Below, one piece after another: positions 13,983 through 32,000 of a DNA stretch of 32,000 nt. Both the position numbers and the translations under genes were made by a program. Below the pieces are notes generated by a model. It searched no databases. It saw nothing but the letters and a program-made list of their open reading frames with translations, and was not told where the DNA came from. Source of the stretch: Rhodobacter capsulatus SB 1003 (lineage in GTDB: Bacteria; Pseudomonadota; Alphaproteobacteria; Rhodobacterales; Rhodobacteraceae). The DNA is taken from contig NC_014034.1 of the NCBI RefSeq assembly GCF_000021865.1, positions 2,130,001 to 2,162,000 of the forward strand, given 5' to 3'. The first letter of the stretch is position 1. Each line of letters begins with the position of its first letter.

Positions 13983-13985
13983 GCG

Positions 13986-16430: not shown

Positions 16431-16991
16431 ATGGCCAGGCTGGTCACGGTAAGATTTCTGCGGGGCTCCGCGCCCTACAACACCGGCGAGATCGCCGGGT
16501 TCGAGGCCCAAGTCGCGCGCGCGCTGATCGCCAGCGGCGCGGCCGAGGCGGTGAAGGCCGCGCCGCTGGCGCCCGATCCCGCCGCCGGGGCCGGGACCCG
16601 TCAGCGCGTGGTGCTGACCTTCCTCGCCGCCGCGCCGCCCTATCATGCGGGCGATGTGGCGGGCTTCGATCCGCTTGAGGCCGCGGCGCTGGTGGCCCGG
16701 GGCAAGGCGGTGCCGCTGACCACCAGGACCGGCGCCGGGGAAGAGCCGGGGGAGGATGAGGCCTGCGACACGGAAGAACCGGGCGACAATCCCGCCGCCG
16801 ATCCCGGCGACGATCCCGGTGCGGACTGCCCCGATGACGGGATCGACGACGACGCGGCCGAGCCGGATTTCCTGCTCGTCGACCATGACGACGACGGCAA
16901 CGACCATGACCATGACGACGACGGCGCAGCCGAAGACCTTGACGACGACGGCGAAGACGGCGCTCCGCCGGTGCAGGGGCGCGCGGGCTGA
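16431..16991 (+). CDS. Head-module protein with an internal ~40-aa duplication and an extremely acidic Asp-rich tail
   Basis: VTVRFLRGSAPYNTGEIAGFEAQVARALIASGAAEAV versus VVLTFLAAAPPYHAGDVAGFDPLEAAALVARGKAVPL. Then about 80 residues dominated by D/E/G/P (DDDAAEPDFLLVDHDDDGNDHDHDDDGAAEDLDDDGEDG). Confidence 0.6.
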   Translation: MARLVTVRFLRGSAPYNTGEIAGFEAQVARALIASGAAEAVKAAPLAPDPAAGAGTRQRVVLTFLAAAPPYHAGDVAGFDPLEAAALVARGKAVPLTTRTGAGEEPGEDEACDTEEPGDNPAADPGDDPGADCPDDGIDDDAAEPDFLLVDHDDDGNDHDHDDDGAAEDLDDDGEDGAPPVQGRAG

Positions 16992-17585
16992 TGCGCGTTC
17001 TGGGACCGGTCCCGGGCGCGGTCAGCGTGGCGGAGTTCAAGCGCGCCACCCATATGGACGAGGGGACCGAGGACGATGCCGCCCTCGCCGCCTGTCTGGC
17101 GGCGGCGCAAAGCCTGGTCGAACAGGCGACGAACCGCCCGCTCGGCCCGCGCGAGGTGGAGATCACGCTGGAGGCGGTGCCCGGCCTGCGGCGCTGGTGG
17201 TTTCCCTGCGCGCCGGTGCTGTCGGTGGCGCAGGTGGTGGTCGAGACCGAAACGGGGGCGCAGGCGTTTGACCCGGCGCGCTGGCGGCTGCGCCTCGCCC
17301 ATGACGAGCCGCAGATCGACTTTGCCGCGGGCGCGCTGCCCTCCAGCGCCGCCCCCTGCCCCGTCAGCATCACCGCCACGGTCGGCGCCGATCCCGAAAG
17401 CCCGGCGCTCCTGCCGCTGCGCCAGGCGATCGTGCTGATCGCGCGGGACTGGCACGCGGCCGGAATCACCATCGCAGGCGAGGCGGCCAGCCCCGGTGCG
17501 CTCTCCTTCGGCGCGCGCGCGATGCTCCGGGCACGCCCGCTATCTGCGCCCGCGCGTGATGGCGTGCGGGCTTTCGGGGGGCTGA
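16991..17585 (+). CDS. gp6-like head-tail connector protein (3' end unresolved)
   Basis: VSVAEFKRATHMDEGTEDDAALAACLAAAQSLVEQATNRPL is the typical gp6-like N-terminus. The frame has no stop before the next gene (the ORF runs to 17923). A stop at 17583-17585 exists only in the +1 frame. Confidence 0.55.
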
Positions 17586-17587
17586 GA

Positions 17588-17923
17588 ATGGGCGAGCGCC
17601 TTGACACAAGGGTGACGATCCTGCGCCCGCGGATCGGCGATGACGGGCTGAGCCGCTGCTTCACCGGCTGGGAAGAGCTGGCGACCCTCTGGGCCAGCCT
17701 GCGCGAGACCGCGGGTGACGAAGCCGCCGCCGCCGGGCAGATCGAAACGCGCGGCGGTGCCAGGCTGCGCCTGCGCGCCTCTCGCCGCGCCCGCCAGATC
17801 ACCGCCGCGGACCGGGTGCGGGCGCGCGGCCAGCTGTGGGAGATCCGCGGGATCTGCGCCCCCGCTGCCGGGCTGATCGAGCTCTCCCTTGCGGCGATCA
17901 TGATCGGAAAGGCGGCGGGATGA
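17588..17923 (+). CDS. Head closure / head-tail adaptor protein
   Basis: Internal ATG 17588. MGERLDTRVTILRPRIGDDGLSRCFTGWEELATLWASLRETAGDEAAAAGQIE...RQITAADRVRARGQLWEIRGI fits the head-tail adaptor pattern (~110 aa). Confidence 0.6.
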   Translation: MGERLDTRVTILRPRIGDDGLSRCFTGWEELATLWASLRETAGDEAAAAGQIETRGGARLRLRASRRARQITAADRVRARGQLWEIRGICAPAAGLIELSLAAIMIGKAAG

Positions 17924-18423
17924 CCGGCACGGTGAAGCTGGAAGGGCTGCGCGACCTCGAACAGGCGCTGGCGCAGATCGAGAAGACCGCCACGGCGAAA
18001 GCGGTGATGCGCCGCGCGCTGAAGACCGCCGCCCGGCCGGTGGCGGATCTGGCCGCGGCGCTCGCCCCCGAGGGGCCGACCGGCAAACTGAAGCGCTCGA
18101 TCAGCATCAGCACCAAGCTCAGCAAGCGCCAGCAGCAGGCGAACCGCAAGCTGCAGGCCGAGGGCAAGGCCGCGGTCGAGATGTTCCTCGGCCCCGATTA
18201 CAAACAGGCGGGCAATCACGCCCATCTGGTGGAATTCGGCACCAAGCCGCACCGCAACCGCGGTCAATTCGCCGGAACGCAGCACCCCGGCACCGCACCC
18301 CGCCCCTTCCTGCGCCCCGCCTGGGAGGCCGAGGGCAGACCCACCCTCGATCGGCTGGGCAAGACGCTCTGGGGCGAGATCGAAAAGGCGGCGCGACGCG
18401 CGGCCGCAAAGGAGAAGGGCTGA
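17920..18423 (+). CDS. HK97 gp10-family tail-attachment protein
   Basis: ATG 17920 (ATGA overlap). HLVEFGTKPH...APRPFLRPAWE is the gp10-family signature. Confidence 0.75.
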   Translation: MTGTVKLEGLRDLEQALAQIEKTATAKAVMRRALKTAARPVADLAAALAPEGPTGKLKRSISISTKLSKRQQQANRKLQAEGKAAVEMFLGPDYKQAGNHAHLVEFGTKPHRNRGQFAGTQHPGTAPRPFLRPAWEAEGRPTLDRLGKTLWGEIEKAARRAAAKEKG

Positions 18424-18572
18424 TGGAACAGGAAAAGGCGCATCCCGATGATGTGGTGAAGCTGCTCGCCGATCTCGCCGCGCAGCATGGCTACCGGCTG
18501 GTCGGGGTCGAACTGGTGGCGCGCAAGCCGCTCGGCGCCGCGCTGCCGCGTCACAGCTACAGGATCTTCTGA
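18423..18572 (+). CDS. Small coupled ORF (49 aa), not listed in the ORF track
   Basis: TGATG overlap with the gp10-like gene. MEQEKAHPDDVVKLLADLAAQHGYRLVGVELVARKPLGAALPRHSYRIF*. Fills the gap before the next gene exactly. Confidence 0.4.
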   Translation: MEQEKAHPDDVVKLLADLAAQHGYRLVGVELVARKPLGAALPRHSYRIF

Positions 18573-18575
18573 TCC

Positions 18576-18944
18576 ATGGAAGAGAGCTTTCGCGCCGCGC
18601 TGCTGGCCTCGGGCGCGGTCACGGCGCTGACTGGCGACCGGATCGATTTCGGCGCCAACCCGCAGGACACGGCCTGCCCGCGCCTCGTGCTCTGGACGAT
18701 CTCCGACACCGGCGGGCTGCTCCTCTCCGGCCCCGATGGCATTTCCCGCGGCCGGGTCCAGGTCGATTGCTACGGCGAGAGCTATGGCGCGGCCAAACGC
18801 CTTTCCCGCGCCGTGCGCGCCGTCCTGGATGGCTACAGCGGCGGCGGGTTTCAGGGCGTCTTTCACGCGGGCACGCGCGATTCACAAGACAGCGAGGCCC
18901 CGTTCCGGGTCTCGCTCGATTTCATCACGGTTTTCACCAGCTGA
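18576..18944 (+). CDS. DUF3168-like tail completion/terminator protein
   Basis: 122 aa. Position before the major tail protein, with RVQVDCYGESYGAAKRLSRAVRAVL typical of this family. Confidence 0.55.
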   Translation: MEESFRAALLASGAVTALTGDRIDFGANPQDTACPRLVLWTISDTGGLLLSGPDGISRGRVQVDCYGESYGAAKRLSRAVRAVLDGYSGGGFQGVFHAGTRDSQDSEAPFRVSLDFITVFTS

Positions 18945-18954
18945 GGAGGGCCGC

Positions 18955-19395
18955 ATGGCCAACAGTCAAATCATCGCTTACGGCGCCACCGTCGAGCGCT
19001 CCACCGATGGCGTCGCCTGGACGGCAATCCCCGGATGCAAGGGCATCGCCATCCCCGCGCCGAGCACCGATTACATCGATGCCACCTCGCTCGACAGCCC
19101 GAACGGCTTCAAGGAATACATCCGCGGCATGCGCGACGCGGGCGAGATCTCGGTGCCCTGCGGCTATACCGCCGCGGGCTACGAACAGCAGATCGCCGAT
19201 TCCCTCCGCGACGAGCCGGTTTACTACCGCACCACCCTCAAGCCCGCCCCCGGCCAGAAGACCGGCGATGTCTTCCAGTTCCGCGGCTTCCCGACCCCGC
19301 AGGTCGAGGGCAACGACGTCACCGGCCTGATCGCCATGACGATCAGCATTCGCGCCACCGGCAACGTGACCTGGACCAAGGGGACGAAGGCATGA
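18955..19395 (+). CDS. Major tail (tube) protein
   Basis: ATG 18955 after GAGGAGGG. 146 aa. Position upstream of the chaperone pair and tape measure. Confidence 0.7.
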   Translation: MANSQIIAYGATVERSTDGVAWTAIPGCKGIAIPAPSTDYIDATSLDSPNGFKEYIRGMRDAGEISVPCGYTAAGYEQQIADSLRDEPVYYRTTLKPAPGQKTGDVFQFRGFPTPQVEGNDVTGLIAMTISIRATGNVTWTKGTKA

Positions 19396-19757
19396 CCGGC
19401 ATGACCAGCTTGCGCGGCGCGGTGCCCTTCGCCGGGGAGCGGTATTTCCGGCTCTCCACCAATGCCCTTGTGCGCTATCAGGACGCCGCGGGCGAGACCC
19501 TGCTCGAGGCGATGGCCGCGCTGGAACAAAGCCCCGGCGACACGCGGCGCATCCGCCGCATGGTCTGGGCGGCGCTCTCCCATGAGGGCCTCACCGAGGA
19601 AGCGGCGGGCGATCTGATGGACGAGATCGGCCAGACCGAAGCGGCCCGGCTTCTGGGCGAGGCGATCCGCGCCGCCTTTCCGCAGGCGGGCGCTCCGGGG
19701 GCGGAGGCCGCAGACGCCGGGGGAAACGGGGCGAGCCGGAAGAAACGGATCCCCTGA
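19392..19757 (+). CDS. Tail assembly chaperone (G-like, zero-frame product)
   Basis: ATGA overlap with the tube gene. 121 aa. Position immediately upstream of the tape measure, with a slippery site near its 3' end. Confidence 0.7.
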   Translation: MTGMTSLRGAVPFAGERYFRLSTNALVRYQDAAGETLLEAMAALEQSPGDTRRIRRMVWAALSHEGLTEEAAGDLMDEIGQTEAARLLGEAIRAAFPQAGAPGAEAADAGGNGASRKKRIP

Positions 19758-20071
19758 ACGCGCTGCTGCGCGCCTGGCTTGAGGCCGGGCAGGATTATCC
19801 GGGCTTTTGGGATCTGACCCCGCGCGAGGCGGTGATGATCCTGCGCGGTGCCGCCGCGCAGCGCCGCGCCGAGATCGAGACCGCCCGCGCCCTCAATCAC
19901 CAGCTCGCCGGGCTCGTGGCCTTTGCTGTCCACGATCCGCAACACCTGCCGGAGTTCCGGCCGGACGACACCGCCGCCGCCACCGCCGCCACCGCGCAGG
20001 GCGCGCGCGAGGTCGATCATGAACGGGTCCGGGGCGCGCTGATCGCCATGGCGCTGCGCCCCGGGCCCTGA
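19392..20071 (+). CDS. Tail assembly chaperone fusion (GT-like, via -1 frameshift at 19721-19727)
   Basis: After the slip the reading continues RGEPEETDPLNALLRAWLEAGQDYPGFWDLTPREAVMILRG... to the stop at 20069-20071. The downstream ORF has no convincing start of its own before 19832. Confidence 0.6.
19721..19727 (+). promoter_or_regulatory. -1 programmed ribosomal frameshift heptamer G_GGA_AAC
   Basis: Zero-frame codons GGA (19722-24) and AAC (19725-27), preceded by G 19721, give X_XXY_YYZ. The -1 frame is open from here to 20071. Confidence 0.65.
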
Positions 20072-20115
20072 TCTGCAAACCCGGCCGCCTGCGGGCGGCC
20101 CTGTCTTTTCGGGGA

Positions 20116-23001
20116 ATGCCCATGTCTGCCTCTGCAGTGATCGGCGCGCTGCGCGTCAATCTCGGTCTCGACAGCGCCAGTTTCCAAAAGGGCGTCGCCA
20201 GATCGACGGCCTCGCTCGGCACGCTCAAGGGCGCGGCCATGGCCGCCTCGGCCGCGGTCTCCGCCATCGGCGCGGCGATCGGCGGCCCGGCCCTGGCCGC
20301 GATCGTCACCGCGGCCGCGCGTTCCGCCCGCGAGATCACCCGCCTGTCGCAGGTCGCGGGCGCCTCGGCGCAGGAGCTGCAGCACTGGTCCTTCGGGGCG
20401 CGGACGGTGGGCATCGAACAGGAAAAGCTCGCCGATATCCTCAAGGACGTGAACGACAAGGTGGGCGATTATCTCTCCACCGGCGGCGGCGCGATGGCGG
20501 ATTTCTTCGAAAAGATCGCGCCCCGCGTCGGCGTGACCGCGCAGGCGTTTCGCGATCTTTCGGGGCCGCAGGCCTTGCAGCTTTACGTGTCGAGCCTGGA
20601 GAAAGCGGGCCTCTCGCAGGCGGAGATGACCTTCTACATGGAGGCCATCGCCAGCGATTCCACGCTGCTGCTGCCGCTTTTGCGCGCCAATGGCGCAGAA
20701 ATGGCCCGCTTGGGCGAGAGCGCCTCAAGCTTTGGCGCCGTCCTCGGGACCGATGCGATCACCGCGCTGCGCGCGGCCGAGCGGGCGCTCGACGACATTT
20801 CGGTCGTCCTTGAGGCCACACGCAACCGCATCGCCGCCGATCTCGCCCCGGCGGTCGAGGCGATGGCGCGCGCCTTCGTCAATGCCATGCGCGAGGGCGG
20901 GTTCCTGCGCGGGGTGATCGACGGGCTGATGGCGGCGCTGCCGCATCTGACCGCCTATGCCGCCGCCTTCACCGCCGGGCTGATCGCCTGGCAGGCGGCC
21001 GCGATCGCCGCGCGTCTGGCCACGATGGCGCTCTCGGTCTCCATGGCCGGGCTGCGCGCCGCGATCGCCGCCACCGGCGTCGGCGTGCTCGTCGTCGCCA
21101 TGGGCGAGCTCGGCCTCGCCATCCTCGATGCCGTGCGCAAGGCTGGGGGCTTTGCCGCCGCCTGGTACAAGCTCAAGGCGAAGTTCTTCGAGGTTCTGCG
21201 CGACATGGCCGGGGGATGGGTGGAGTTCACCTGGGCGCTTGCCGACGGCATGAATGATCTGTTCGGCACCCGGCTGATGGGCGCAGATGCGGGGATCACG
21301 CAAACCCTGCGCGACCTGCAGATCGGGGCGGAAGACGCCGCCGCGGCCGCGCAGGAGGTGGCCACGGCCGCCACCGAGGCCGAGGTCACGCTGACAGGTC
21401 TCGGAAGCGCGGGCTCCGGCGCCGGAAAGAAGCTCAAAAAGGGCCTGACCGAGGCGCAAAAGGCGGCGCAGGAGTTCGCCGATGCGCTGCGGGACGGGTT
21501 TCGGTCCTCGGTCGAGGGCGCGGTGGACTGGATGCTTGACGGGTTTCAGGGCGGCTTCAAGGGTCTGGTCAGCCTTGCCCGGGACGCGCTCAAGCAGGTC
21601 GTGGCGCTCTTTCTCAAAAACCGGATCACGCTCTCGCTCGGCCTTGGCGTCAGCGGCGGCGCCGCCACGGGGGCAGCGGCGGGCGCGGCCGTCTCCGGGG
21701 CGGCGGCGGGCGGCTTTGCGGGCCCGCTCGGCCTGCTGGGCACCGCGGGCAGCTTTCTCGGCGCGATCGGCTCGGGCGCGGCGGGGCTCGGCACCGCGCT
21801 TTTCGGGGCGGGCGGCGGCCTTGGCGCCGCGGGCACCTATCTCTCCTCGGTCGTCGGCAGCGCGACGAGCAGCCTCGGGCCGTTCGGCGCCGCCATCGGC
21901 GCGGCGCTGCCGATCCTCGCCGGGGTGGGCGTGGTCTTCTCCTTCTTCAAGAAGAAGGTCACCCAGCTTGACGCCGGGCTGCGGCTGACCGTCACCGACA
22001 TGGACACGCTGGTCGAGACCTTCAGCAAGACGAAGACCTCGCGGTTCTGGGGGCTGTCGAAGAAGACCCGCGAGACCTTCACCGAAGCCGGTGCGGCGAT
22101 TGCCGACCCGATCGAGGCCGCGGTGGCCGGGATCGTGGGCGGCGTCGCGGACATGGCCGACACCCTCGGCATCGCCGGGCGCGACGCGCTGAAAGGGTTC
22201 TCGACGCAGATCAAAATCTCCACCCACGGGCTCTCCGACAGCGAGGCGCAAGAGGCGATCCGGGCGGGGTTCACGCAGCTGTCCGACGAGCTGGCGCGGA
22301 TGATCCTGGCCGCGGGCGAAGGTGTCAGCGGCAATCTCTCCGCCTTCACCTCGGCCTTCGCGCGCCGGGGCGAGAGCGCCAGCGAGACCCTGACCCGGCT
22401 TTCCTCGGCGCTGGCCACGGCCAATGCCTGGCTCGACCGGCTCGGCAAGACCGCCTATGACACCTCGCTGGCGGGCGCCGATGCGGCCTCAAAATGGGCC
22501 GGGGCCTTCGGCGGCCTTGAGGCCATGTCCGAGGCCGTCGGCAGCTATTACGCCGGGTTCTACAGCCCCGCCGAACGCCTCGCCCAGGCGCGCGAGGAGC
22601 TCTCGCAGGCGCTGGCGGGGCTCGGCATCGACGCCCTGCCCGGCTCGCGCCAAGCCTTCCGGCAGCTGATCGACGCCGCCTTTGCCAGCGGCGACAGCGA
22701 TCTGGCCGCAAAGCTGATCCAGCTGGCCCCGGCCATGGCCGAGATCACCGATCAGGCCCAGGCGCTGACCGCGGCGCTGAAGGATCTCGACACCCAGTCG
22801 CTTTATCGCAGCGGCGCCGAGGCGCTTTATGCCGCGACCTCGGAAGGCCATCGCCGCCGCCTGACCGGCGCCGATGCCACCGTGCAGGGGCTGCTCGCCG
22901 AGGTGGTGCGCGCGATCCGCGAAGGCGACATCAACAATGCCCGCCTCACCGCCCGGCTTCTGGCCGTGCAGGAGCGCATGAGCCTGGACCCCGCGCGATG
23001 A
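20116..23001 (+). CDS. Tape measure protein
   Basis: 961 aa, A/G/L-rich with hydrophobic central stretches, downstream of the chaperone pair. ATG 20122 is an alternative start. Confidence 0.9.
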   Translation: MPMSASAVIGALRVNLGLDSASFQKGVARSTASLGTLKGAAMAASAAVSAIGAAIGGPALAAIVTAAARSAREITRLSQVAGASAQELQHWSFGARTVGIEQEKLADILKDVNDKVGDYLSTGGGAMADFFEKIAPRVGVTAQAFRDLSGPQALQLYVSSLEKAGLSQAEMTFYMEAIASDSTLLLPLLRANGAEMARLGESASSFGAVLGTDAITALRAAERALDDISVVLEATRNRIAADLAPAVEAMARAFVNAMREGGFLRGVIDGLMAALPHLTAYAAAFTAGLIAWQAAAIAARLATMALSVSMAGLRAAIAATGVGVLVVAMGELGLAILDAVRKAGGFAAAWYKLKAKFFEVLRDMAGGWVEFTWALADGMNDLFGTRLMGADAGITQTLRDLQIGAEDAAAAAQEVATAATEAEVTLTGLGSAGSGAGKKLKKGLTEAQKAAQEFADALRDGFRSSVEGAVDWMLDGFQGGFKGLVSLARDALKQVVALFLKNRITLSLGLGVSGGAATGAAAGAAVSGAAAGGFAGPLGLLGTAGSFLGAIGSGAAGLGTALFGAGGGLGAAGTYLSSVVGSATSSLGPFGAAIGAALPILAGVGVVFSFFKKKVTQLDAGLRLTVTDMDTLVETFSKTKTSRFWGLSKKTRETFTEAGAAIADPIEAAVAGIVGGVADMADTLGIAGRDALKGFSTQIKISTHGLSDSEAQEAIRAGFTQLSDELARMILAAGEGVSGNLSAFTSAFARRGESASETLTRLSSALATANAWLDRLGKTAYDTSLAGADAASKWAGAFGGLEAMSEAVGSYYAGFYSPAERLAQAREELSQALAGLGIDALPGSRQAFRQLIDAAFASGDSDLAAKLIQLAPAMAEITDQAQALTAALKDLDTQSLYRSGAEALYAATSEGHRRRLTGADATVQGLLAEVVRAIREGDINNARLTARLLAVQERMSLDPAR

Positions 23002-23936
23002 AGATCCTGACTCCGATTGCCGTCACCGATGCAACGCTCATCTCCTGCTCGATCCCCGAGACGGATTTTCCGCGCTGGAACGCGCAGACCACCTATCCCC
23101 GCGGCGCCTTCGTGATCAGCCCCGCCACCCATACCGTCTATCGCGCGCTCCAGGGCGACAACACCGGCCATGATCCCGATCTCGAACAGGCAGCGCTCGC
23201 CGATCCGCTGATCGACGACCCCGATCCGGTCTTCTGGCAGGTGATCGGCGCCACCAACCGCTGGCGGCTTTTCGACGGCAAGCCCTCGGTTCTGGCGCGT
23301 GCCGCCGAGATCATCCGCGTCACCCTCGCCCCGGGCGTGGCCGTGGGCGGCGTCGCGGGCTTTGGCATCAGCGCCGCCGAGATCCGCGTGACGATGACCG
23401 ATGCCGGGGCCGTGGTCTACCGCCGCGCGATCGCCATGCAGGACGAAACCGTCGTCAGCGACGGGCTGGGCTATTATGTCGAGCCGATCACCGAGCTCTC
23501 CGAATTCGTCCTCACCGATCTGCCGCCCTATGCCGCCGCGCAGATCACCATCGAGGCCATCCGCCGCGGCGGGCAGGTCAGCGTCGGGCAGATCGTCCTC
23601 GGCCCGGTCTGGGCGCTCGGGCGCCCGGTGATCGGCGGCACCGGGTTTCAGGGCGTCGATTTCTCCTATGTCAAACAGGACGATTACGGCGATCTGACCA
23701 CCGTGCGCCGCGCCGCCACCCGGCTCAGCACCTTCGAGACCTGCCTGCCGAACGCCCGGCTGCTCGGCTTTGACACCCGCATGCGCAGCCTGCGCGGCGG
23801 CACCGCCGCGGTCTGGATCGGCTCGGACGATCCCCGCAAGGCGGCGATCAACTACGGATTCTATCGCAGCTACCGCGCGGCCTATCAGACCGACGCCTGG
23901 TCGCTGATCTCCATCGAAGTACAAGGAATCGTCTGA
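22998..23936 (+). CDS. Tail tip/baseplate-associated protein (function not assignable)
   Basis: 312 aa, ATGA overlap with the tape measure gene. Position typical of a distal tail protein. Confidence 0.45.
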   Translation: MKILTPIAVTDATLISCSIPETDFPRWNAQTTYPRGAFVISPATHTVYRALQGDNTGHDPDLEQAALADPLIDDPDPVFWQVIGATNRWRLFDGKPSVLARAAEIIRVTLAPGVAVGGVAGFGISAAEIRVTMTDAGAVVYRRAIAMQDETVVSDGLGYYVEPITELSEFVLTDLPPYAAAQITIEAIRRGGQVSVGQIVLGPVWALGRPVIGGTGFQGVDFSYVKQDDYGDLTTVRRAATRLSTFETCLPNARLLGFDTRMRSLRGGTAAVWIGSDDPRKAAINYGFYRSYRAAYQTDAWSLISIEVQGIV

Positions 23937-24880
23937 TGGCAAAACCCGCCAAACCGACCGTCCCGCCGCCGCCGCTGCGCTCCAACCCGGAGACCTTCAG
24001 CGCGCGCATGGAGGCCTCGCTCCTGTTCTGGAAGACCTTCGCCGAGTATCTCGACGCGCTTGGCGACCATGCCGAGACCCAGGCCGATGCGGCGCTGGCC
24101 GCGGCCCTTGCGGCGGGCGCCGGGACCGGACTTGCGCTGCGGGGCAATGGCGGCAAGCTGATGGCCGTCAATGCCGGGGCAACCGCGCTGGAATTCCTGA
24201 CCGCCTCCGGCGCCGGAAAGGCGATCCTCGCCAATGCCAGCGCCGCCGGTCTGGCGCTGGCGAGCGACGCGGATGCGGCCGCGCAGCGCGCCACGCTCGG
24301 CCTTGGCACGGTCACCGCCCTGGCCGAGGCGGTGACGGATCTGAGCGCGATCACCCGCTCGGGCTGGAACCGCTTCGCCGCCGCCCAGACCGCCAACACC
24401 CCCTTTGCGACCGGCGCGGGGATGGTGCTGACGATCTTTTACGACGGCTCGGCCGCGGTCCAGCTGGTCTGGGGCCACAACAAGGGCGAGAGCGACACCG
24501 GGCAATGGATCCGCTGGCGTGCCGCCAGCACCTGGGGGGGCTGGGTGCGGCTGCATGGCTCGCAGACCGAGATCAACGGGCTGATCGGGGCGCTGGCGCT
24601 GGGGGTCGCGCAGTCCTGGCAGGATGTCACCGCCGCCCGCCTCGCCGGAACCAATTACCAGAACACCACCGGGCGCCCGATCGCGGTCAGCATCACCACA
24701 GGCGGCACGACGGCGAACACCGCGCTTTATCTGGGCGTCGCGACCCCCGCCAACATCCTGATTGCCGCAACCGGGACCGGCTCGACCCTGCGGATCATGT
24801 CGCATCAGGCCATCGTCCCCGCGGGGCATTATTACCGGTTCGAGGGCGCCGCGCCCGCAACCTGGGCGGAGCTGCGCTGA
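23936..24880 (+). CDS. Tail fibre / host-recognition protein (putative)
   Basis: 314 aa, TGATG overlap. A/G/T-rich with a beta-rich C-terminus. Position after the tail tip gene. Confidence 0.45.
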   Translation: MAKPAKPTVPPPPLRSNPETFSARMEASLLFWKTFAEYLDALGDHAETQADAALAAALAAGAGTGLALRGNGGKLMAVNAGATALEFLTASGAGKAILANASAAGLALASDADAAAQRATLGLGTVTALAEAVTDLSAITRSGWNRFAAAQTANTPFATGAGMVLTIFYDGSAAVQLVWGHNKGESDTGQWIRWRAASTWGGWVRLHGSQTEINGLIGALALGVAQSWQDVTAARLAGTNYQNTTGRPIAVSITTGGTTANTALYLGVATPANILIAATGTGSTLRIMSHQAIVPAGHYYRFEGAAPATWAELR

Positions 24881-25374
24881 TGGAACACGGCTTTTTCCAC
24901 CCCGCCCACGGCTACTGGCAGACCACCGGCACGCCCACCCCCGAGATCCGCGCCGCCTATCCCGAGGGCACGGTCGAGGTGCCGCTGCGCCCCGGGGCCG
25001 ATCATCTCTGGACCGGCGAGGGCTGGGAACCGGCCCCGGCGCGGCTCTCGGTCGATCAGGCGCTCGCCAATCTCAAGGCCGCGCGCGACGCGGCCATCGC
25101 CCGCGGCATCGAGGTCGACGGGCTGCGCCTGCAGACCGACGATCTGAGCCAGAGCCGCCTCACCGCCGCCGCCCTTGCCGCCCAGCTCGATCCGACCCTG
25201 ACCCTGCGCTGGAAGCTTGCGACCGGGGAGTTCGTCGCGCTGAGCGCGCCGCAGATCATCGCCCTCGCGCTGGCCGTGCGCGCCCATGTGCAGGCCTGTT
25301 TCGACCGCGAAGCCGATCTGGCCGCGCAGATCCGCGCCGCCGCCGACCCGGCCGCGGTCGCCCTCACCTTCTGA
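24880..25374 (+). CDS. DUF4376-like fibre-associated protein
   Basis: ATG 24880 (TGATG overlap). LKAARDAAIARGIEVDGLRLQTDDLSQSRLTAAAL...FVALSAPQIIALALAVRAHVQACFDREADL fits the DUF4376 pattern. Confidence 0.5.
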   Translation: MEHGFFHPAHGYWQTTGTPTPEIRAAYPEGTVEVPLRPGADHLWTGEGWEPAPARLSVDQALANLKAARDAAIARGIEVDGLRLQTDDLSQSRLTAAALAAQLDPTLTLRWKLATGEFVALSAPQIIALALAVRAHVQACFDREADLAAQIRAAADPAAVALTF

Positions 25375-25435
25375 TGCCCTCGGGCGCCGTCACCGTCACC
25401 GCCCGCCGGGCGGCAAGCCGCGAAAGGGCAGGATC

Positions 25436-25756
25436 ATGAGCGATGCAAGGGGCCTCGTAGAGCTCGTCGATGCCATCTGGGGCGGGGCCGTCACCACGAT
25501 GGCGGCGGCGCTCGCCGGGCGGCTGATGTGGCATTCGACCGAGGTGCGGGCGCGCAAGCGCCGCTTCCTGAGCCGCGAGCTGCTCTGGGAGCTGCCCGTC
25601 GCGGTCGGCATGGCGATCATCGGCGAGGCGGTGGCGGCTTATTTCGAGCTCGGCCGGACCGTGACCACCGGCGTCGTCGCAACGCTCGCCTATCTCGGCC
25701 CGCGCGGCGCCCAGGTGGCGCTGACCCGGGTCTTCTTTCACAACAAGGAGTCGTGA
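25436..25756 (+). CDS. Holin-like membrane protein
   Basis: ATG 25436. 106 aa with about three hydrophobic segments and a charged C-terminus, immediately upstream of the endolysin. Confidence 0.5.
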   Translation: MSDARGLVELVDAIWGGAVTTMAAALAGRLMWHSTEVRARKRRFLSRELLWELPVAVGMAIIGEAVAAYFELGRTVTTGVVATLAYLGPRGAQVALTRVFFHNKES

Positions 25757-25757
25757 G

Positions 25758-26432
25758 ATGACGACAGACTGGCGGGCCGCGCAGCTGCGGCTCCGGGCGC
25801 TCGGCTTTGAGCCGGGGCCGATCGACGGGCTTTGCGGGCCGAAGACGAAAGCCGCGATCACGGCCTTCGGGCGCAGCCGCGGGCTGTCGGCCGAGCCCGG
25901 TTTCGGGCCGGTCATCGCGGCGCTGATGGGCGCAGATGCGCCCTGCCCCGACCTTCCCTGGATGGCCGAGGCGCTGCGCCTGAAAGGCCTGCACGAGCGG
26001 CGCGACACCACGCGGCTGCGCGCCTGGCTCGATCCGGCGGCCGGGGCGATCGACCCGCGCGCCATGCCCTGGTGCGGCGCCTTCGTGGCAAGCTGCCTGC
26101 GCGCGGCGCTGCCCGGGGTGATCCTGCCCGACACCCCGCTTGCCGCCCGCGCCTGGAGCCGCTTTGGCGATCCCGTCGCGCCGGTCTTCGGCGCGGTGCT
26201 GGTCTTCTGGCGCGGCGCCCCCTCCGGCTGGCAGGGCCATGTCGGCTTTTGCCGCGGCGAGGATGCGGGGGCCTATCACGTCCTCGGCGGCAATCAATCC
26301 GATGCCGTCACCGTCACCCGGATCGCCAAGACGCGCCTGCTCGCGGCGCGCTGGCCCGCGGGCGTACCCGTCACCGGGCGGCCGGTCCGCCTCACCACCA
26401 AAGGCCTCGCCCTCTCCAGCAACGAAGCCTGA
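25758..26432 (+). CDS. Endolysin: N-terminal peptidoglycan-binding domain plus C-terminal CHAP/NlpC-like (TIGR02594-type) domain
   Basis: LRALGFEPGPIDGLCGPKTKAAITAFGRSRGL (PG_binding_1 pattern), then PWCGAFVASCL...WQGHVGF...VLGGNQSDAV (Cys/His amidase-like core). Confidence 0.8.
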   Translation: MTTDWRAAQLRLRALGFEPGPIDGLCGPKTKAAITAFGRSRGLSAEPGFGPVIAALMGADAPCPDLPWMAEALRLKGLHERRDTTRLRAWLDPAAGAIDPRAMPWCGAFVASCLRAALPGVILPDTPLAARAWSRFGDPVAPVFGAVLVFWRGAPSGWQGHVGFCRGEDAGAYHVLGGNQSDAVTVTRIAKTRLLAARWPAGVPVTGRPVRLTTKGLALSSNEA

Positions 26433-26450
26433 GCCAACACGGAGACCCCG

Positions 26451-26798
26451 ATGACCGACACCCTCCTCGCCACGATCCTCGCGCAGATCGTGCTGCCGAT
26501 CCTCGCCACGATCACCACCGCGCTGATCGGCTGGGCGGCGGCAAAACTGCGCGCCCGCTGGGGCATCGAGATCGAAGCCGCGCAGCGCGAGGCCCTGCAT
26601 CAGGCGCTGATGACCGGCGCGCAGCTCGCCCTGACCCGCCGCGGGCGCCGCGACGACGGCCGCGATCTCGACCTCCTCGCCCGGGATGCTGTCGCCTATG
26701 CCCAGACCTCGGTCCCCGATGCCATCCAGGCCCTCGCGCCACGCGACGGCGTGCTGAAAAATCTCGCCGCGGCCAAGATCGCGGCCCTGAGCCGGTGA
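26451..26798 (+). CDS. Membrane-anchored lysis-cassette protein (spanin-like?)
   Basis: 115 aa with an N-terminal TM (LLATILAQIVLPILATITTALIGWAAA) followed by a charged helical region. Position after the endolysin. Confidence 0.4.
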   Translation: MTDTLLATILAQIVLPILATITTALIGWAAAKLRARWGIEIEAAQREALHQALMTGAQLALTRRGRRDDGRDLDLLARDAVAYAQTSVPDAIQALAPRDGVLKNLAAAKIAALSR

Positions 26799-26837
26799 GA
26801 TCGCCCGCCGGGACACTTCTGTAAAGAGTGACGTTTT

Positions 26838-26874
26838 GGCCTCTTGGGAGGCCAGAGGGGGCGCCAACCCCCTC
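26838..26874 (+). terminator. Two consecutive GC hairpins after the lysis cassette
   Basis: GGCCTC-TTGG-GAGGCC (26838-26853) and GAGGGGG-CGCCAA-CCCCCTC (26855-26874). No T-tract. Confidence 0.3.
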
Positions 26875-26951
26875 CGACACGGGGACACCGCTAAGCACCC
26901 CCGTCGACCAGCCAAAGCTCATGGCCGCTCCCCCCTCGCGAGGGAGGGCCC

Positions 26952-27368
26952 TTGGAACATATTCAGATGATGGAGTCCATGATTCCCGTCGCGCCGGTGG
27001 CCCCTGCGGCACCCTGGCTCGGCGGCAAACGCAACCTGGCGAAACGGATCTGCACGATCCTCGACGAAACCCCCTGCCGGACCTATTGCGAGCCCTTCGT
27101 GGGCATGGGCGGGATCTTCCTGCGCCGCCGCGCCCGCCCGCGGGCCGAGGTGATCAATGATGCGGGCCGCGACATCGCGAACCTGTTCCGGATCCTGCAG
27201 CGGCATTATCCGCAGTTCCTCGAAATCCTGCGCTTCCAGCTGACGGTCCGCAGCGAGTTCGAGCGCCTGCTGGCGACCCGGCCGGACACCCTCACCGATC
27301 TCGAACGTCGCATCCAGGATCGGCTCCAGCGTTTCGGCGATTGCCCCATGAATTATGCGGTCCCATGA
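26952..27368 (+). pseudogene. Dam-type (D12 class) N6-adenine DNA methyltransferase, 3'-truncated
   Basis: PWLGGKRNLAKRI...YCEPFVGMGGIFL...EVINDAGRDIANLFRIL...PDTLTDLER are the N-terminal SAM-binding blocks. Similarity stops at about 27308, no DPPY catalytic motif follows, and the ORF ends inside the 17-bp duplication. Confidence 0.75.
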
Positions 27369-27628
27369 ATTATGCGGTCGGCGATCGGCGGGATCATCAA
27401 CCGCCTAGTGCCGCCCTTGCGCTTGGGAATGTCGACGCGGCGGCAGGGGCCTTGCTGCCAGCCGCCCGCGCGCAATGCCAGCGCAAGATCGCGCAGAGAT
27501 GCGGTGGCCCCTTGGGCAAAGGTGGCGATGGTGACGCCGTCACCCCCCGCCGCGCCGCCGTTTTGCTGGACCTTGAGCCATGAGGCCTGCAGGGTCTCAT
27601 ATTCCGTGGCCTTGAAAAACAGGTCCAT
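27300..27628 (-). pseudogene. Reverse transcriptase gene fragment (N-terminal ~110 codons only)
   Basis: From ATG 27628: MDLFFKATEYETLQASWLKVQQNGGAAGGDGVTIATFAQGATASLRDLALALRAGGWQQGPCRRVDIPKRKGGTRRLMIPPIADRIIHG, which covers RT domains 0-2. The frame stops in the 17-bp duplication. With one copy removed it continues AIAETLEPILDATFE and then hits the methylase gene. Confidence 0.75.
27345..27378. repeat. Perfect 17-bp tandem duplication
   Basis: CCCATGAATTATGCGGT at 27345-27361 and again at 27362-27378. Confidence 0.95.
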
Positions 27629-27731
27629 CTTGCCCCCGCCACATCTTCCGTGTCCTGCGCCCCGTTGCGCCAGACTGCCGCCGAAGTCCAGCCGGTGCAA
27701 CCTTGCTGTTGCCGCACCTCCGTTTGCATTG

Positions 27732-28039
27732 GGTTCCCGCCGTCATCTTGGCGGTGATGTGAGGCTTACCCCATACCCAAGAAAGGAACATCATGGGTTC
27801 AGTCCGCCGTCGTCTTGGCGGTGATGTGAGGCTCTCCCAGCATACCAAACCGCTGGCGACCATCAGGTTCAGTCCGCCGTCGTCTTGGCGGTGATGTGAT
27901 GCACAGGAGAGACCGATGAAAATCACGGCCTTCGGTTCAGTCCGCCGTCGTCTTGGCGGTGACGTGAGGCACCTAAACAAGAGGTTCTACGATGCCGAAA
28001 GGGGTTCAGTCCGCCGTCGTCTTGGCGGTGATGTGAGGC
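27732..28039 (-). CRISPR. CRISPR array: 5 repeats (37 nt, the leftmost degenerate) and 4 spacers (30-33 nt), type VI-A-like repeat
   Basis: Repeats GGTTCAGTCCGCCGTCGTCTTGGCGGTGATGTGAGGC at 27796-27832, 27866-27902 (27900 G>T), 27934-27970 (27963 T>C) and 28003-28039. The degenerate copy at 27732-27765 has a 3-nt deletion plus 1 substitution. Spacers: 27766-27795, 27833-27865, 27903-27933, 27971-28002. The minus-strand reading has the Cas13a handle shape. Confidence 0.95.
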
Positions 28040-28409
28040 TCAGGTCCCGCAAGCCATTGAGACGCCAAGATCTTCAAGCAGGGTTTCGGAACCCTGGACG
28101 ATCAAGGCCGTATTTTGAGACCTTTTTTGCATTTCCGCGCCGCTCCAGTGGCAATTACTCTTTCCGTGTCAGTGTATTGCGCGTTTTCTGAACCCTCCTT
28201 GCCGAATTTCCGACCCGATGCCGCTGCAGGCGGCGGGTTTCGGCAAGCCTAGGCGAAGTCCGATGCGATGGCTACAGGCTTTGTCGCGCCCCGAACGTCG
28301 AAAACCGGGCAGATGGTGCGGCAAATCGGCCCGGCCCAACGGAACTGTTGCGAATGGGCTTGACGGCTTGCATCCTTGCCTTGGTGGGTTTTGTGCTGGG
28401 GGCGCGACA
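28040..28409. promoter_or_regulatory. Putative CRISPR leader and divergent promoter region between the array and cas13a
   Basis: 370-bp non-coding spacer with an AT-richer tract (about 28100-28190). The repeat orientation and the degenerate repeat at the far end place the leader here. A TTGACG hexamer at ~28359-28364 is a candidate -35 for cas13a. Confidence 0.4.
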
Positions 28410-31400
28410 ATGCAGATTGGCAAGGTTCAAGGGCGGACGATCAGCGAATTCGGCGATCCGGCGGGGGGGCTCAAACGCAAGATCAGCACCGATGGCAAGA
28501 ACCGCAAGGAGCTGCCCGCTCATCTGTCAAGCGATCCTAAGGCGCTGATCGGGCAGTGGATTTCCGGGATCGACAAGATCTATCGCAAGCCCGACAGCCG
28601 GAAGTCGGATGGTAAAGCGATCCATAGCCCGACCCCATCCAAGATGCAGTTCGACGCGCGTGACGACCTTGGCGAGGCGTTCTGGAAGCTGGTGTCAGAG
28701 GCGGGGCTGGCGCAAGACAGCGACTACGATCAGTTCAAACGCCGACTGCACCCCTATGGTGACAAGTTCCAACCTGCCGACTCCGGCGCGAAGTTGAAAT
28801 TCGAAGCGGATCCGCCCGAGCCACAGGCGTTCCACGGGCGCTGGTATGGCGCGATGTCGAAACGCGGGAATGATGCCAAAGAGCTTGCTGCGGCGCTTTA
28901 CGAGCATCTGCATGTCGATGAAAAGCGCATTGACGGGCAACCAAAGCGGAACCCCAAGACCGACAAATTTGCGCCCGGCCTGGTGGTGGCGCGGGCATTG
29001 GGGATAGAGAGTTCGGTTCTGCCGCGCGGCATGGCGCGGCTGGCGCGGAATTGGGGCGAGGAGGAAATTCAAACCTATTTCGTGGTCGATGTAGCGGCTT
29101 CGGTGAAGGAGGTGGCGAAAGCCGCAGTGAGTGCTGCGCAAGCGTTCGACCCGCCGCGACAGGTGAGCGGACGATCCCTGTCGCCAAAGGTCGGCTTTGC
29201 CCTTGCCGAGCATCTGGAGCGCGTGACCGGATCGAAGCGCTGCTCTTTCGACCCCGCTGCGGGGCCCAGCGTGCTGGCGCTGCATGACGAGGTGAAGAAA
29301 ACCTACAAGCGCCTTTGTGCGCGCGGCAAGAATGCCGCGAGAGCGTTTCCCGCCGACAAGACGGAGCTGCTCGCCCTGATGCGGCATACGCATGAAAACC
29401 GGGTGCGCAACCAGATGGTCCGGATGGGGCGTGTGTCCGAATATCGGGGACAGCAAGCGGGCGATCTTGCGCAGAGCCATTACTGGACCTCGGCCGGACA
29501 GACCGAAATCAAGGAATCCGAGATCTTTGTTCGGCTGTGGGTGGGGGCCTTTGCGCTGGCCGGGCGGTCGATGAAGGCCTGGATCGACCCGATGGGCAAG
29601 ATCGTCAATACCGAGAAAAATGACCGTGATCTGACCGCCGCGGTCAATATTCGGCAGGTGATCTCGAACAAGGAGATGGTCGCCGAGGCGATGGCGCGGC
29701 GTGGCATCTATTTCGGGGAAACGCCCGAACTGGACCGACTGGGTGCCGAAGGGAACGAGGGCTTTGTCTTCGCGCTGTTGCGCTATCTGCGCGGTTGCCG
29801 GAACCAGACCTTTCACCTTGGTGCCCGGGCTGGTTTTCTCAAGGAAATCCGAAAAGAACTGGAAAAGACCCGGTGGGGAAAGGCGAAGGAGGCAGAGCAT
29901 GTCGTCCTGACGGACAAGACAGTCGCCGCGATCCGCGCCATCATCGACAATGATGCAAAGGCGTTGGGGGCGCGCCTGCTTGCCGATCTGTCCGGTGCTT
30001 TCGTGGCGCATTATGCATCGAAAGAGCATTTCTCGACACTTTATTCCGAGATCGTCAAAGCGGTGAAGGATGCGCCCGAAGTCTCCTCCGGGCTGCCGCG
30101 GCTCAAGCTATTGCTGAAGCGGGCAGATGGTGTGCGCGGTTATGTGCATGGCCTGAGAGACACACGCAAACATGCATTTGCCACCAAGCTGCCCCCGCCC
30201 CCCGCCCCTCGAGAACTTGACGATCCCGCGACGAAGGCGCGTTACATCGCCCTGTTGCGGCTTTACGACGGGCCATTCCGCGCCTACGCTTCTGGCATTA
30301 CCGGAACGGCGCTTGCCGGACCTGCCGCGCGCGCCAAGGAAGCGGCAACCGCGCTGGCGCAAAGCGTGAACGTCACGAAGGCGTATTCCGACGTAATGGA
30401 AGGGCGCACGAGCCGGTTGCGCCCCCCGAACGATGGCGAAACGCTGCGCGAATATCTCAGCGCCTTGACCGGCGAAACCGCGACCGAGTTCCGGGTGCAG
30501 ATCGGGTACGAGTCCGACTCGGAAAACGCCCGCAAACAGGCGGAATTCATCGAGAACTATCGCCGCGACATGCTTGCCTTCATGTTCGAGGATTACATCA
30601 GGGCCAAGGGCTTTGACTGGATATTGAAGATCGAGCCGGGCGCGACGGCGATGACCCGCGCGCCCGTCCTGCCCGAGCCGATCGATACGCGGGGCCAATA
30701 CGAGCATTGGCAAGCGGCGCTCTATCTGGTGATGCATTTCGTTCCGGCCAGCGATGTCTCGAACCTGCTGCACCAGTTGCGCAAATGGGAGGCGCTTCAG
30801 GGCAAATATGAACTGGTCCAGGACGGTGACGCCACGGATCAGGCGGACGCGAGGCGCGAGGCGCTTGATCTCGTCAAGCGCTTCCGCGATGTGCTGGTGT
30901 TGTTCCTCAAGACCGGCGAGGCCCGGTTCGAGGGCCGCGCAGCGCCTTTCGATCTGAAGCCGTTTCGGGCGCTCTTTGCCAACCCGGCCACCTTTGACCG
31001 GCTCTTCATGGCCACACCCACAACCGCGCGCCCTGCCGAAGATGACCCCGAGGGGGACGGTGCGTCCGAGCCGGAACTGCGTGTCGCGCGCACCTTGCGC
31101 GGTTTGCGCCAGATCGCGCGCTACAACCATATGGCGGTTCTGAGCGATCTTTTCGCAAAGCACAAAGTGCGGGACGAAGAGGTGGCCCGCTTGGCCGAGA
31201 TCGAAGACGAGACGCAGGAAAAGTCACAGATCGTGGCAGCCCAGGAACTGCGCACCGACCTGCACGACAAGGTGATGAAGTGTCACCCAAAAACGATTTC
31301 CCCCGAGGAGCGGCAAAGTTACGCTGCGGCGATCAAGACCATCGAGGAACACCGGTTTCTGGTCGGACGGGTCTATCTGGGTGATCATCTGCGCCTGCAC

Positions 31401-32000
31401 CGGTTGATGATGGACGTGATCGGACGCCTGATCGACTATGCCGGGGCTTATGAACGTGACACCGGAACTTTCCTCATAAACGCGAGCAAGCAGTTGGGAG
31501 CAGGCGCCGATTGGGCTGTCACCATCGCAGGGGCAGCCAATACCGACGCGCGCACCCAAACCCGCAAAGACCTTGCGCATTTCAATGTGCTTGACCGCGC
31601 GGATGGCACGCCAGACCTGACCGCTCTGGTCAACCGGGCGCGCGAGATGATGGCCTATGACCGCAAGCGCAAGAATGCGGTGCCGCGCTCGATCCTCGAT
31701 ATGCTGGCACGACTTGGGCTGACGCTGAAATGGCAGATGAAAGATCACCTTCTGCAAGACGCGACGATCACTCAGGCCGCCATCAAGCACCTCGACAAGG
31801 TCAGGCTGACAGTTGGCGGGCCGGCGGCGGTGACAGAGGCCCGTTTCAGCCAAGACTACCTCCAGATGGTGGCGGCCGTCTTCAATGGCAGCGTCCAGAA
31901 TCCAAAGCCACGCCGCCGGGATGACGGGGACGCATGGCACAAGCCCCCCAAACCCGCGACCGCGCAAAGCCAGCCAGATCAAAAACCGCCCAACAAGGCA
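28410..32000 (+). CDS. cas13a: Cas13a (C2c2)-like type VI-A CRISPR effector, RNA-guided RNase. 3' end lies beyond the window
   Basis: Frame is open for 1197 codons from ATG 28410 (after a GGGGG run) to the last base of the window. Two HEPN R-x4-H motifs lie at codons 464-469 and 1052-1057. Adjacent to the CRISPR array. Not in the ORF track because there is no stop in the window; the three long minus-strand ORFs here are its shadows. Confidence 0.93.
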   Translation, partial: MQIGKVQGRTISEFGDPAGGLKRKISTDGKNRKELPAHLSSDPKALIGQWISGIDKIYRKPDSRKSDGKAIHSPTPSKMQFDARDDLGEAFWKLVSEAGLAQDSDYDQFKRRLHPYGDKFQPADSGAKLKFEADPPEPQAFHGRWYGAMSKRGNDAKELAAALYEHLHVDEKRIDGQPKRNPKTDKFAPGLVVARALGIESSVLPRGMARLARNWGEEEIQTYFVVDVAASVKEVAKAAVSAAQAFDPPRQVSGRSLSPKVGFALAEHLERVTGSKRCSFDPAAGPSVLALHDEVKKTYKRLCARGKNAARAFPADKTELLALMRHTHENRVRNQMVRMGRVSEYRGQQAGDLAQSHYWTSAGQTEIKESEIFVRLWVGAFALAGRSMKAWIDPMGKIVNTEKNDRDLTAAVNIRQVISNKEMVAEAMARRGIYFGETPELDRLGAEGNEGFVFALLRYLRGCRNQTFHLGARAGFLKEIRKELEKTRWGKAKEAEHVVLTDKTVAAIRAIIDNDAKALGARLLADLSGAFVAHYASKEHFSTLYSEIVKAVKDAPEVSSGLPRLKLLLKRADGVRGYVHGLRDTRKHAFATKLPPPPAPRELDDPATKARYIALLRLYDGPFRAYASGITGTALAGPAARAKEAATALAQSVNVTKAYSDVMEGRTSRLRPPNDGETLREYLSALTGETATEFRVQIGYESDSENARKQAEFIENYRRDMLAFMFEDYIRAKGFDWILKIEPGATAMTRAPVLPEPIDTRGQYEHWQAALYLVMHFVPASDVSNLLHQLRKWEALQGKYELVQDGDATDQADARREALDLVKRFRDVLVLFLKTGEARFEGRAAPFDLKPFRALFANPATFDRLFMATPTTARPAEDDPEGDGASEPELRVARTLRGLRQIARYNHMAVLSDLFAKHKVRDEEVARLAEIEDETQEKSQIVAAQELRTDLHDKVMKCHPKTISPEERQSYAAAIKTIEEHRFLVGRVYLGDHLRLHRLMMDVIGRLIDYAGAYERDTGTFLINASKQLGAGADWAVTIAGAANTDARTQTRKDLAHFNVLDRADGTPDLTALVNRAREMMAYDRKRKNAVPRSILDMLARLGLTLKWQMKDHLLQDATITQAAIKHLDKVRLTVGGPAAVTEARFSQDYLQMVAAVFNGSVQNPKPRRRDDGDAWHKPPKPATAQSQPDQKPPNKA
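29799..29816 (+). other. HEPN-1 catalytic motif RNQTFH (codons 464-469)
   Basis: Context ALLRYLRGCRNQTFHLGARAG. R-N-x3-H is the canonical HEPN RNase motif. Confidence 0.85.
31563..31580 (+). other. HEPN-2 catalytic motif RKDLAH (codons 1052-1057)
   Basis: Context DARTQTRKDLAHFNVLDRA. Second R-x4-H motif, about 590 residues after the first. Confidence 0.85.

Follow-up and report, generated by a model that had tools for sequence, protein, structure and literature searches.

Described systems and the present locus

The gene considered here is an open reading frame (ORF) that begins at position 28410 of a 32,000-nt stretch of the Rhodobacter capsulatus SB 1003 chromosome (NC_014034.1, positions 2,130,001 to 2,162,000; hereafter the window), and the closest described system is the class 2 type VI-A CRISPR-Cas system of the same species, with its effector RcCas13a. 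Kick et al. (2022) solved the binary complex of RcCas13a with CRISPR RNA (crRNA) as a crystal structure (PDB 7OS0, 2.1-2.2 Å), which shows the common Cas13a domain architecture (PMC8776769). According to that study, R464/H469 and R1052/H1057 form the catalytic tetrad, with H469 lying about 18 Å off the other residues before activation, while R1085, N1089 and H1113 are essential for metal-independent pre-crRNA cleavage, and cleavage of target and bystander RNA in E. coli depends on the HEPN residues (PMC8776769). Working in R. capsulatus SB1003, Kretz et al. (2024) found that induction of cas13a together with a protospacer RNA resulted in cellular RNA fragmentation and reversible growth arrest, and that a single mismatch in the protospacer abolished the growth arrest (PMC11089165). 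Three promoters were described, with induction in stationary phase and under stress (PMC11089165).

Two further groups are relevant for comparison. LbuCas13a, LshCas13a and LseCas13a from Leptotrichia and Listeria (PDB 5XWP, 5XWY, 6VRB and others) belong to the same protein family, and RcCas13a is only about 23% identical to them (PMC8776769). The stem of the Rc crRNA was reported to be one C-G pair longer, with no base-specific contacts to the 5' flank, and a cold-shock-like C-terminal domain was called unique to RcCas13a (PMC8776769). The type VI-A/RT1 systems (Rhodovulum sp. MB263, R. kholense and Rhizobium spp.; PMC6753606, PMC11662929), for which reverse transcriptase (RT)-dependent adaptation has been shown, carry RT-Cas1 fusions. 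Toro et al. (2019) placed Rhodobacteraceae, Rhodospirillaceae and Rhizobiaceae in their Cas13a clade, and R. capsulatus is not named in the searched part of that text (PMC6753606).

The locus in the window has the same layout as the published RcCas13a locus, namely a minus-strand gene, a four-spacer array, cas13a and a two-spacer array. The protein over 1197 residues, the residue numbering and the repeat sequence are also the same, with no difference from the RcCas13a protein of SB1003 (PDB 7OS0). The enzyme, its structure, catalytic residues, crRNA and in vivo phenotype are all published, and the gene is already known. What is new to us, and incremental, is an apparently dead RT-Cas1 stub, the minus-strand transcription of the first CRISPR array (array 1), and carriage of the locus on a prophage-like element at a tRNA-Leu gene. 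The features are listed in Table 1.

Table 1. Features of the RcCas13a locus and the surrounding element, in window coordinates
Feature	Position	Strand	Basis
tRNA-Leu(CAA); its last 14 nt (2891-2904, GACCACCCGCACCA) are the left direct repeat (attL core)	2821..2904	+	Recurring 14-mer; empty site in R. capsulatus SP108
HK97-type prophage body	2905..27307	+	Pfam; PHROGs; identity to IMG/VR contigs
dam methyltransferase gene, 5' part, truncated at the junction with the CRISPR module	26952..27307	+	PF02086 positions 1-72 of 253 only
Putative RT-Cas1 fusion stub, about 107 N-terminal codons of about 670, without the Cas1 part	27308..27628	-	TIGR04416; PADLOC; tblastn
Perfect 17-bp tandem duplication (CCCATGAATTATGCGGT x2.1) that frameshifts the RT-Cas1 stub	27345..27379	.	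Frame switch seen in the translation and by tblastn
CRISPR array 1, five 37-nt repeats and four spacers	27729..28039	-	Repeat/spacer mapping; crRNA nucleotide match; fold
Putative intergenic leader, divergent promoters for array 1 (leftward) and cas13a (rightward)	28040..28409	.	Array orientation; reporter fusions (PMC11089165)
cas13a, codons 1-1197 of 1285, cut by the window end	28410..32000	+	Open frame; identity to 7OS0_A; NF038188
HEPN1 motif R464-N-Q-T-F-H469	29799..29816	+	R464/H469 catalytic and mutated in PMC8776769
HEPN2 motif R1052-K-D-L-A-H1057	31563..31580	+	R1052/H1057 catalytic and mutated in PMC8776769
Pre-crRNA processing residues R1085, N1089 and H1113	31662..31748	+	Present at these numbers; PMC8776769

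Identity of the effector

An earlier note on this DNA, written from the letters alone, had read the frame as a Cas13a-like effector open for 1197 codons, and the recomputed plus-strand translation from the ATG at 28410 to base 32000 is indeed free of stops. The ORF list supplied with that note has only three entries in this region, all antisense (28695-30029, 30108-31163 and 31224-31982), because ORFs running off the end of the source were omitted from it. In a search of the PDB, residues 1-1197 of the translation aligned to residues 1-1197 of chain A of 7OS0 ('Cas13a') with 2708.7 bits and every residue identical, and a second search with the C-terminal 257 residues as query was again identical to 7OS0_A. 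The NCBIfam equivalog NF038188 (cas13A_C2c2) was the sole NCBIfam match of the protein (E=1.5e-208, 695.6 bits against a cutoff of 150), and the PADLOC Cas13a models matched it as well (E=4.9e-197). The corresponding protein database cluster, of 1285 residues, is named 'type VI-A CRISPR-associated RNA-guided ribonuclease Cas13a [Rhodobacter capsulatus]', and its representative (P0001) differs from the window translation at a single residue, with S667 in the former and T667 in the latter.

The window ends within the gene. For its continuation we used a 3.85-Mb R. capsulatus chromosome (CP198954.1, L001), which is 99.95% identical to window positions 18410-32000 and continues them; window numbering carried on through L001 gives a 42-kb composite. 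A full-length cas13a of 1285 codons, 99.95% identical in DNA, is found at L001 10001-13858, which places 88 codons past the window end, within the limit of fewer than 100 that had been expected. The deposited chain of 7OS0 has 1304 residues compared with the native 1285, and the extra length is presumably a tag. By virtue of the identity with this chain, the bilobed and mostly α-helical fold of recognition and nuclease lobes (N-terminal domain, Helical-1, HEPN1, Helical-2 and HEPN2) applies to the window protein. On these comparisons, the frame almost certainly represents residues 1-1197 of the 1285-residue RcCas13a, and the class 2 type VI-A CRISPR-Cas system has this protein as its single effector.

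Nothing in the data speaks against this identification; the following points qualify it. A scan of the protein with a local copy of Pfam-A returned no family at E<=1, that is, no Cas13a, HEPN, RuvC or HNH domain. Precomputed annotations assign PF28192 (Cas13a_endoribonuclease) and PF28350 (Cas13a_C) to the same protein, and the null result is therefore a library gap rather than a true negative; together with the sole NCBIfam match, it accords with the absence of RuvC- and HNH-type motifs remarked on before. The last 88 codons lie outside the window, and the completeness of cas13a in the window's own strain would follow from the 99.95%-identical genome. Moreover, the six spacers of the two CRISPR arrays had no target in the deposited phage collection, nor, allowing up to 8 mismatches, in the 42-kb composite.

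Catalytic and processing residues

The strings RNQTFH and RKDLAH were recomputed at codons 464-469 and 1052-1057, where they had been placed before. The bare R-x4-H pattern is not specific, because the protein contains two extra copies of it, RDTRKH at 583 and RGQYEH at 761. The motifs at 464 and 1052 are meaningful because they are identical to the catalytic residues of the solved protein, and all residues named by number in PMC8776769 (13/13) occur at the same numbers in the window translation. The quadruple substitution proposed in the earlier note (R464A/H469A/R1052A/H1057A) corresponds to mutations already published for RcCas13a (PMC8776769). Likewise, the guide-dependent target and collateral RNase activity and the self-processing of pre-crRNA that it predicted have been published for the identical protein (PMC8776769, PMC11089165). 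What did not hold is the novelty it implied, given the existing crystal structure, mutational analysis and in vivo study in the native host. The case thus serves as a positive control for reading from sequence only, in which Cas13a was recognised, both HEPN motifs were placed and the organism was named correctly.

The HEPN motifs of LbuCas13a, which the earlier note puts at about 472-477 and 1048-1053, occupy nearly the same positions as those of RcCas13a. The Lbu, Lsh and Lse proteins fall under the same family model, and their local matches to RcCas13a lie around HEPN2 (E 4e-10 to 5e-06). In comparison with them, RcCas13a adds the cold-shock-like C-terminal domain of about 120 residues, most of it beyond the window. 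A metagenomic Cas13a (P0002; L007 250-3984), 38% identical to RcCas13a, carries the Pfam cold-shock domain PF00313 at its C-terminus, so that this domain is not unique to RcCas13a and at least one relative has it. The downstream neighbour of P0002 is a gene with an RVT_1 domain (L007 4555-5181).

CRISPR arrays, leader and spacers

The spacers of array 1 are 30, 33, 31 and 32 nt long, and its leftmost repeat is degenerate, with 9 mismatches, at the leader-distal end. The last repeat ends at 28039, 370 bp before the cas13a ATG, which is the distance given before. Kick et al. named crRNA nucleotides by position (C-1, G-5, C-7, A-8, A-15, G-16, C-17, A-21 and C-28; PMC8776769), and the minus strand of the array 1 repeat matches 9/9 of them in one register only, compared with at most 4/9 for the plus strand in any register. 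In its minimum-free-energy fold, the minus-strand repeat forms the C-26..C-22/G-13..G-9 stem of 5 bp, the A-8/C-7 bulge and the A-27:U-6 and C-28:G-5 pairs, as in the published handle. Owing to this match and fold, array 1 is read as transcribed leftward, divergent from cas13a. The published map, where a minus-strand gene comes after the larger array, fits this orientation (PMC11089165). The handle architecture that the earlier note had attributed to the repeat is thereby borne out, and the logic of the handle (a stem, a 2-nt bulge and an A-U closing pair) is the same in the Lbu, Lsh and Lse systems.

A scan of the leader (28040..28409) for the sigma-70 consensus found no promoter, a result that is uninformative because promoters have been demonstrated there experimentally (PMC11089165). 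A 15-nt inverted repeat (28278-28292 / 28399-28413; 93% complementary, arms 106 nt apart) was also observed, and its right arm, GGGGCGCGACAATGC, spans the cas13a start codon. Judging from its position, this inverted repeat could sequester the cas13a translation start in the 5' untranslated region.

Array 2 follows cas13a outside the window, at composite 32436-32610 (L001 14027-14201). It has two 32-nt spacers, gives its crRNA sense on the plus strand and ends in a degenerate repeat. Compared with the array 1 repeat, four positions of the 5' flank differ, as well as the loop positions -19 (G to A) and -17 (C to U). A protein contact to crRNA C-17 has been reported (PMC8776769), and because array 2 changes this contacted position, the two arrays may differ in binding or processing efficiency.

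A stub of an RT-Cas1 fusion beside array 1

Right after array 1 lies a 91-codon ORF (27628 down to 27353, minus strand), named 'hypothetical protein' by NCBI and 'retron-type reverse transcriptase' by JGI, which reads ...RRVDIPKRKGGTRRLMIPPIADRIIHG and then meets a stop within the 17-bp duplication. When the frameshift is removed, the RT homology gains about 20 further codons. The stub matches positions 2-107 of the 353 of TIGR04416 (group II-type RT; E=1.9e-23), the PADLOC model of CRISPR-associated RT (8.7e-19) and the first 88/617 positions of Cas1_IIIb (3.1e-07). A word-indexed protein search with the stub returned only the stub itself and one fragment. In an exhaustive HMMER search of 1.84 billion representatives, the best complete-looking relatives were 650-720 residues long, and the stub matched their N-terminus; RVT_1 followed by Cas_Cas1 was found in 7/7 of the tested relatives of at least 519 residues.

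In tblastn searches, residues 1-89 aligned at 27628-27365, and residues from about 85 onward at 27362-27300 in a second frame, with weaker alignments of RT-Cas1 relatives running to about 27213, across the breakpoint with the prophage. Eight RT-Cas1 relatives compared with the 42-kb composite matched only over residues 1 to about 105-140, with no Cas1 sequence. No cas2 was seen at the locus. The sequence thus reads as the dead N-terminal remainder of an RT-Cas1 fusion. The best NCBIfam match (a group II RT/maturase) suggested a group II intron remnant, but this was rejected, as all tested long relatives have a Cas1 domain; the position of the stub directly after the array also speaks against such a remnant.

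The stub is most similar to RT-Cas1 fusions, and fits the alphaproteobacterial clade in which type VI-A/RT1 systems were described, as far as the searched part of PMC6753606 goes. Unlike in type VI-A/RT1, where an intact fusion (RVT_1 plus Cas_Cas1) and cas2 stand beside the array, the RT-Cas1 here is about 107 codons long and frameshifted, and the Cas1 domain and cas2 are missing. Because only this stub is left, the RT-dependent adaptation shown for type VI-A/RT1 cannot run from the RcCas13a locus. With the frameshift and with no cas2 seen, self-driven spacer acquisition would not be expected, and the six spacers are probably frozen. The stub is probably the gene labelled cas1 in the locus map of PMC11089165, as far as the searchable text of that paper allows the two to be equated. 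This context may be of modest value to users of RcCas13a, since the published 'cas1' appears to be a dead RT-Cas1 stub.

A prophage-like element at tRNA-Leu

Past array 2, the composite continues with a gene of 516 codons without a Pfam domain, a tyrosine integrase (PF00589, minus strand) and the housekeeping gene tig. The 14-mer at the 3' end of the tRNA-Leu gene, GACCACCCGCACCA, recurs between the integrase and tig at composite 35841-35854 (L001 17432-17445). When the integrase-tig intergenic region was shuffled, 0/2000 shuffles reached 14 and no match exceeded 12. A third copy of the 14-mer was not found. A junction pattern running from the tRNA end straight into the sequence to the right of the distal repeat had one match among 185,579 species-representative genomes, in R. 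capsulatus SP108 (L014, empty site 620-644). There, the tRNA flank aligns to exactly composite 2904, and the tig flank resumes at composite 35900 after a divergent spacer of about 57 nt and stays collinear for more than 6 kb. SP108 is the only R. capsulatus genome that surfaced from the species-representative collection, and it is without the element.

Because SP108 has the uninterrupted site, the intervening 32,950 bp are an insertion, which has 14-bp direct repeats and one integrase only. The features expected of a tRNA-integrated element are all present: direct repeats that copy the 3' end of the tRNA gene, a terminal tyrosine integrase and a related strain with the empty site. Within the insertion lie the prophage, the RT-Cas1 stub, both arrays, cas13a and the 516-codon gene. 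The absence of the locus from SP108 is thus explained by its carriage on this element.

Between 10 and 26.4 kb of the window, the prophage carries genes for HNH, TerS, TerL, portal, S49 protease, HK97-type capsid, head/tail completion, gp10-like, holin and endolysin proteins, and its tail region contains large ORFs without a Pfam domain, one of 961 codons. Judged from the genes alone, the morphogenesis and lysis set is complete. The left arm encodes a methyltransferase, GapR and a helix-turn-helix regulator, and no integrase was found in it with Pfam and PHROGs. The prophage body is similar in DNA to IMG/VR viral contigs, with identities of 93-97% to L015, L016 and L018 and 89-96% to L017. RcapNL or another deposited phage was considered as its identity and rejected, as megablast against 50,697 phage records gave short patches with at most 3% coverage (RcapNL 1%). 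The same records contained no megablast match to the CRISPR block. No Cas13a relatives were found in the species-representative genomes or in IMG/VR.

Origin of the locus in the element

At the junction (27307/27308), the truncated dam gene abuts the RT-Cas1 stub. Three of the four related viral contigs (L016, L017 and L018) reach this point, being collinear to 27307 and diverging thereafter, and they encode the full 274-residue Dam (L016 11882-12706, L017 6171-6995 and L018 11211-12035). About 500 nt past the breakpoint they also part from one another, into low-GC (guanine plus cytosine) DNA. The genes that follow dam encode a C5 methylase and an NgoMIV-type restriction enzyme in L018, a C5 methylase in L016, and a ParA-like ATPase, a HipA-like kinase and DUF3037 in L017. 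On the simplest reading, this phage family has a variable slot for defence cargo in which the type VI-A module sits, and dam lost its 3' part, and RT-Cas1 most of its sequence, in the joining event.

Temperate phages are known to have defence cargo slots, for example the P2/P4 hotspots. Like these, the region between the late genes and the prophage end is a variable low-GC block that holds different defence genes in relatives. Unlike them, the occupant here is a complete type VI-A interference module, and the 'cargo' of L016-L018 is a presumed one.

Accordingly, it seems about an even proposition that a 32.95-kb HK97-type temperate phage at tRNA-Leu(CAA) carries the whole module (array 1, cas13a and array 2) as cargo in the slot between dam and the integrase end, as an abortive-infection weapon that would protect the lysogen against competing phages and move with the phage. 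Somewhat less probable, though a serious competitor, is the possibility that the Cas13a locus belongs to the ordinary chromosome, or to an older island, and borders an unrelated prophage, with two tandem tRNA-Leu integrations later fused by an internal deletion, and Cas13a would then not be phage cargo. A truncated dam joined to a truncated RT-Cas1 is a signature of deletion or illegitimate recombination, the CRISPR block has a GC content of about 0.60 compared with about 0.70 in the prophage body, and no homologue of the integrase was seen in the available parts of L015-L018. Against such a fusion, a single att pair and a single integrase account for the 32.95 kb, with neither a third 14-mer nor an integrase in the left arm; the empty site of SP108 lacks both parts together; and the relatives, too, have variable low-GC cargo at the same position after dam. 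Even after a fusion, Cas13a would still be on an integrase-bearing insertion.

Prophage-like carriage bears on the spread of type VI-A systems and on the induction of RcCas13a in stationary phase and under stress. In the searchable text of PMC8776769 and PMC11089165, and in a limited library search, no mention of a prophage or island context of RcCas13a was found.

Proposed working of the system

As shown for the identical published protein, RcCas13a cuts the minus-strand pre-crRNA of array 1 at the metal-independent site R1085/N1089/H1113. The resulting crRNA is about 58 nt long, with a 28-nt 5' handle (5-bp stem and A-8/C-7 bulge) and a spacer of 30-33 nt. In the binary complex, H469 is held about 18 Å from the remaining catalytic tetrad. 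Once a target RNA pairs with the spacer, the enzyme may rearrange so that R464/H469 and R1052/H1057 form one composite HEPN site, a step that PMC8776769 argues from homologues. The published cleavage of target and bystander RNA in E. coli depends on the HEPN residues, and in R. capsulatus induced cas13a with a protospacer RNA leads to cellular RNA fragmentation and an abortive-infection-like reversible growth arrest. The locus itself would acquire no spacers autonomously, and the whole of it would be cargo of the 32.95-kb prophage-like element at tRNA-Leu.

Alternatively, the main cellular role could be the regulation of stress and stationary-phase physiology rather than antiviral defence, which we consider improbable. 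The lack of a match between the spacers and any known phage, together with the dead adaptation gene, would suit such a role. Opposed to it, the spacers have no other match in the 42-kb composite examined, and the location in a prophage cargo slot, which in relatives holds restriction-modification and kinase genes, points to defence.

Finally, the frame could have been a chance shadow ORF of a GC-rich genome like its three antisense partners, as the window has 68% GC with frequent long spurious ORFs (for example 12369-16913, minus strand, 1514 codons) and cas13a, with a codon-position GC of 0.66/0.44/0.74, does only slightly better on this measure than the antisense ORFs (0.72-0.76/0.43-0.47/0.67). 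This is refuted by the identity with a purified and crystallised protein and by a score in the curated model that exceeds the cutoff more than fourfold. The 1514-codon antisense frame overlies the portal, protease and capsid genes and is itself a shadow ORF rather than a gene, which makes ORF length alone a poor criterion in this window.

Neighbouring genes and minor observations

The 516-residue protein encoded between array 2 and the integrase (L001 14316-15866, plus strand) has two C-terminal hydrophobic (transmembrane) helices and a weak CorA-like match (4.8e-06). By analogy with CorA in type VI-B/RT systems, it was considered as a Cas13a accessory protein and rejected, as its homologues never occur beside Cas13a. 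They were found at five other loci (L008 and L010-L013) in four distinct contexts. At four of these loci the homologue is flanked by proteins of about 173 and about 1480-1510 residues, the latter with a weak NACHT match in L010, and at the fifth its neighbours are AAA/TPR ATPases. The gene is treated here as a separate defence-island gene. The homologues and their neighbours could represent a so far uncharacterised defence system of the STAND type that uses a membrane effector, and the present element would hold only the solo membrane protein.

In the prophage, Asp/Gly-rich in-frame tandem repeats were observed at 16881-16958 (27-nt unit x2.9) and 16782-16819 (12-nt unit x3.2). Both lie at the end of a prophage ORF (16431-16991) that comes immediately after the capsid gene.

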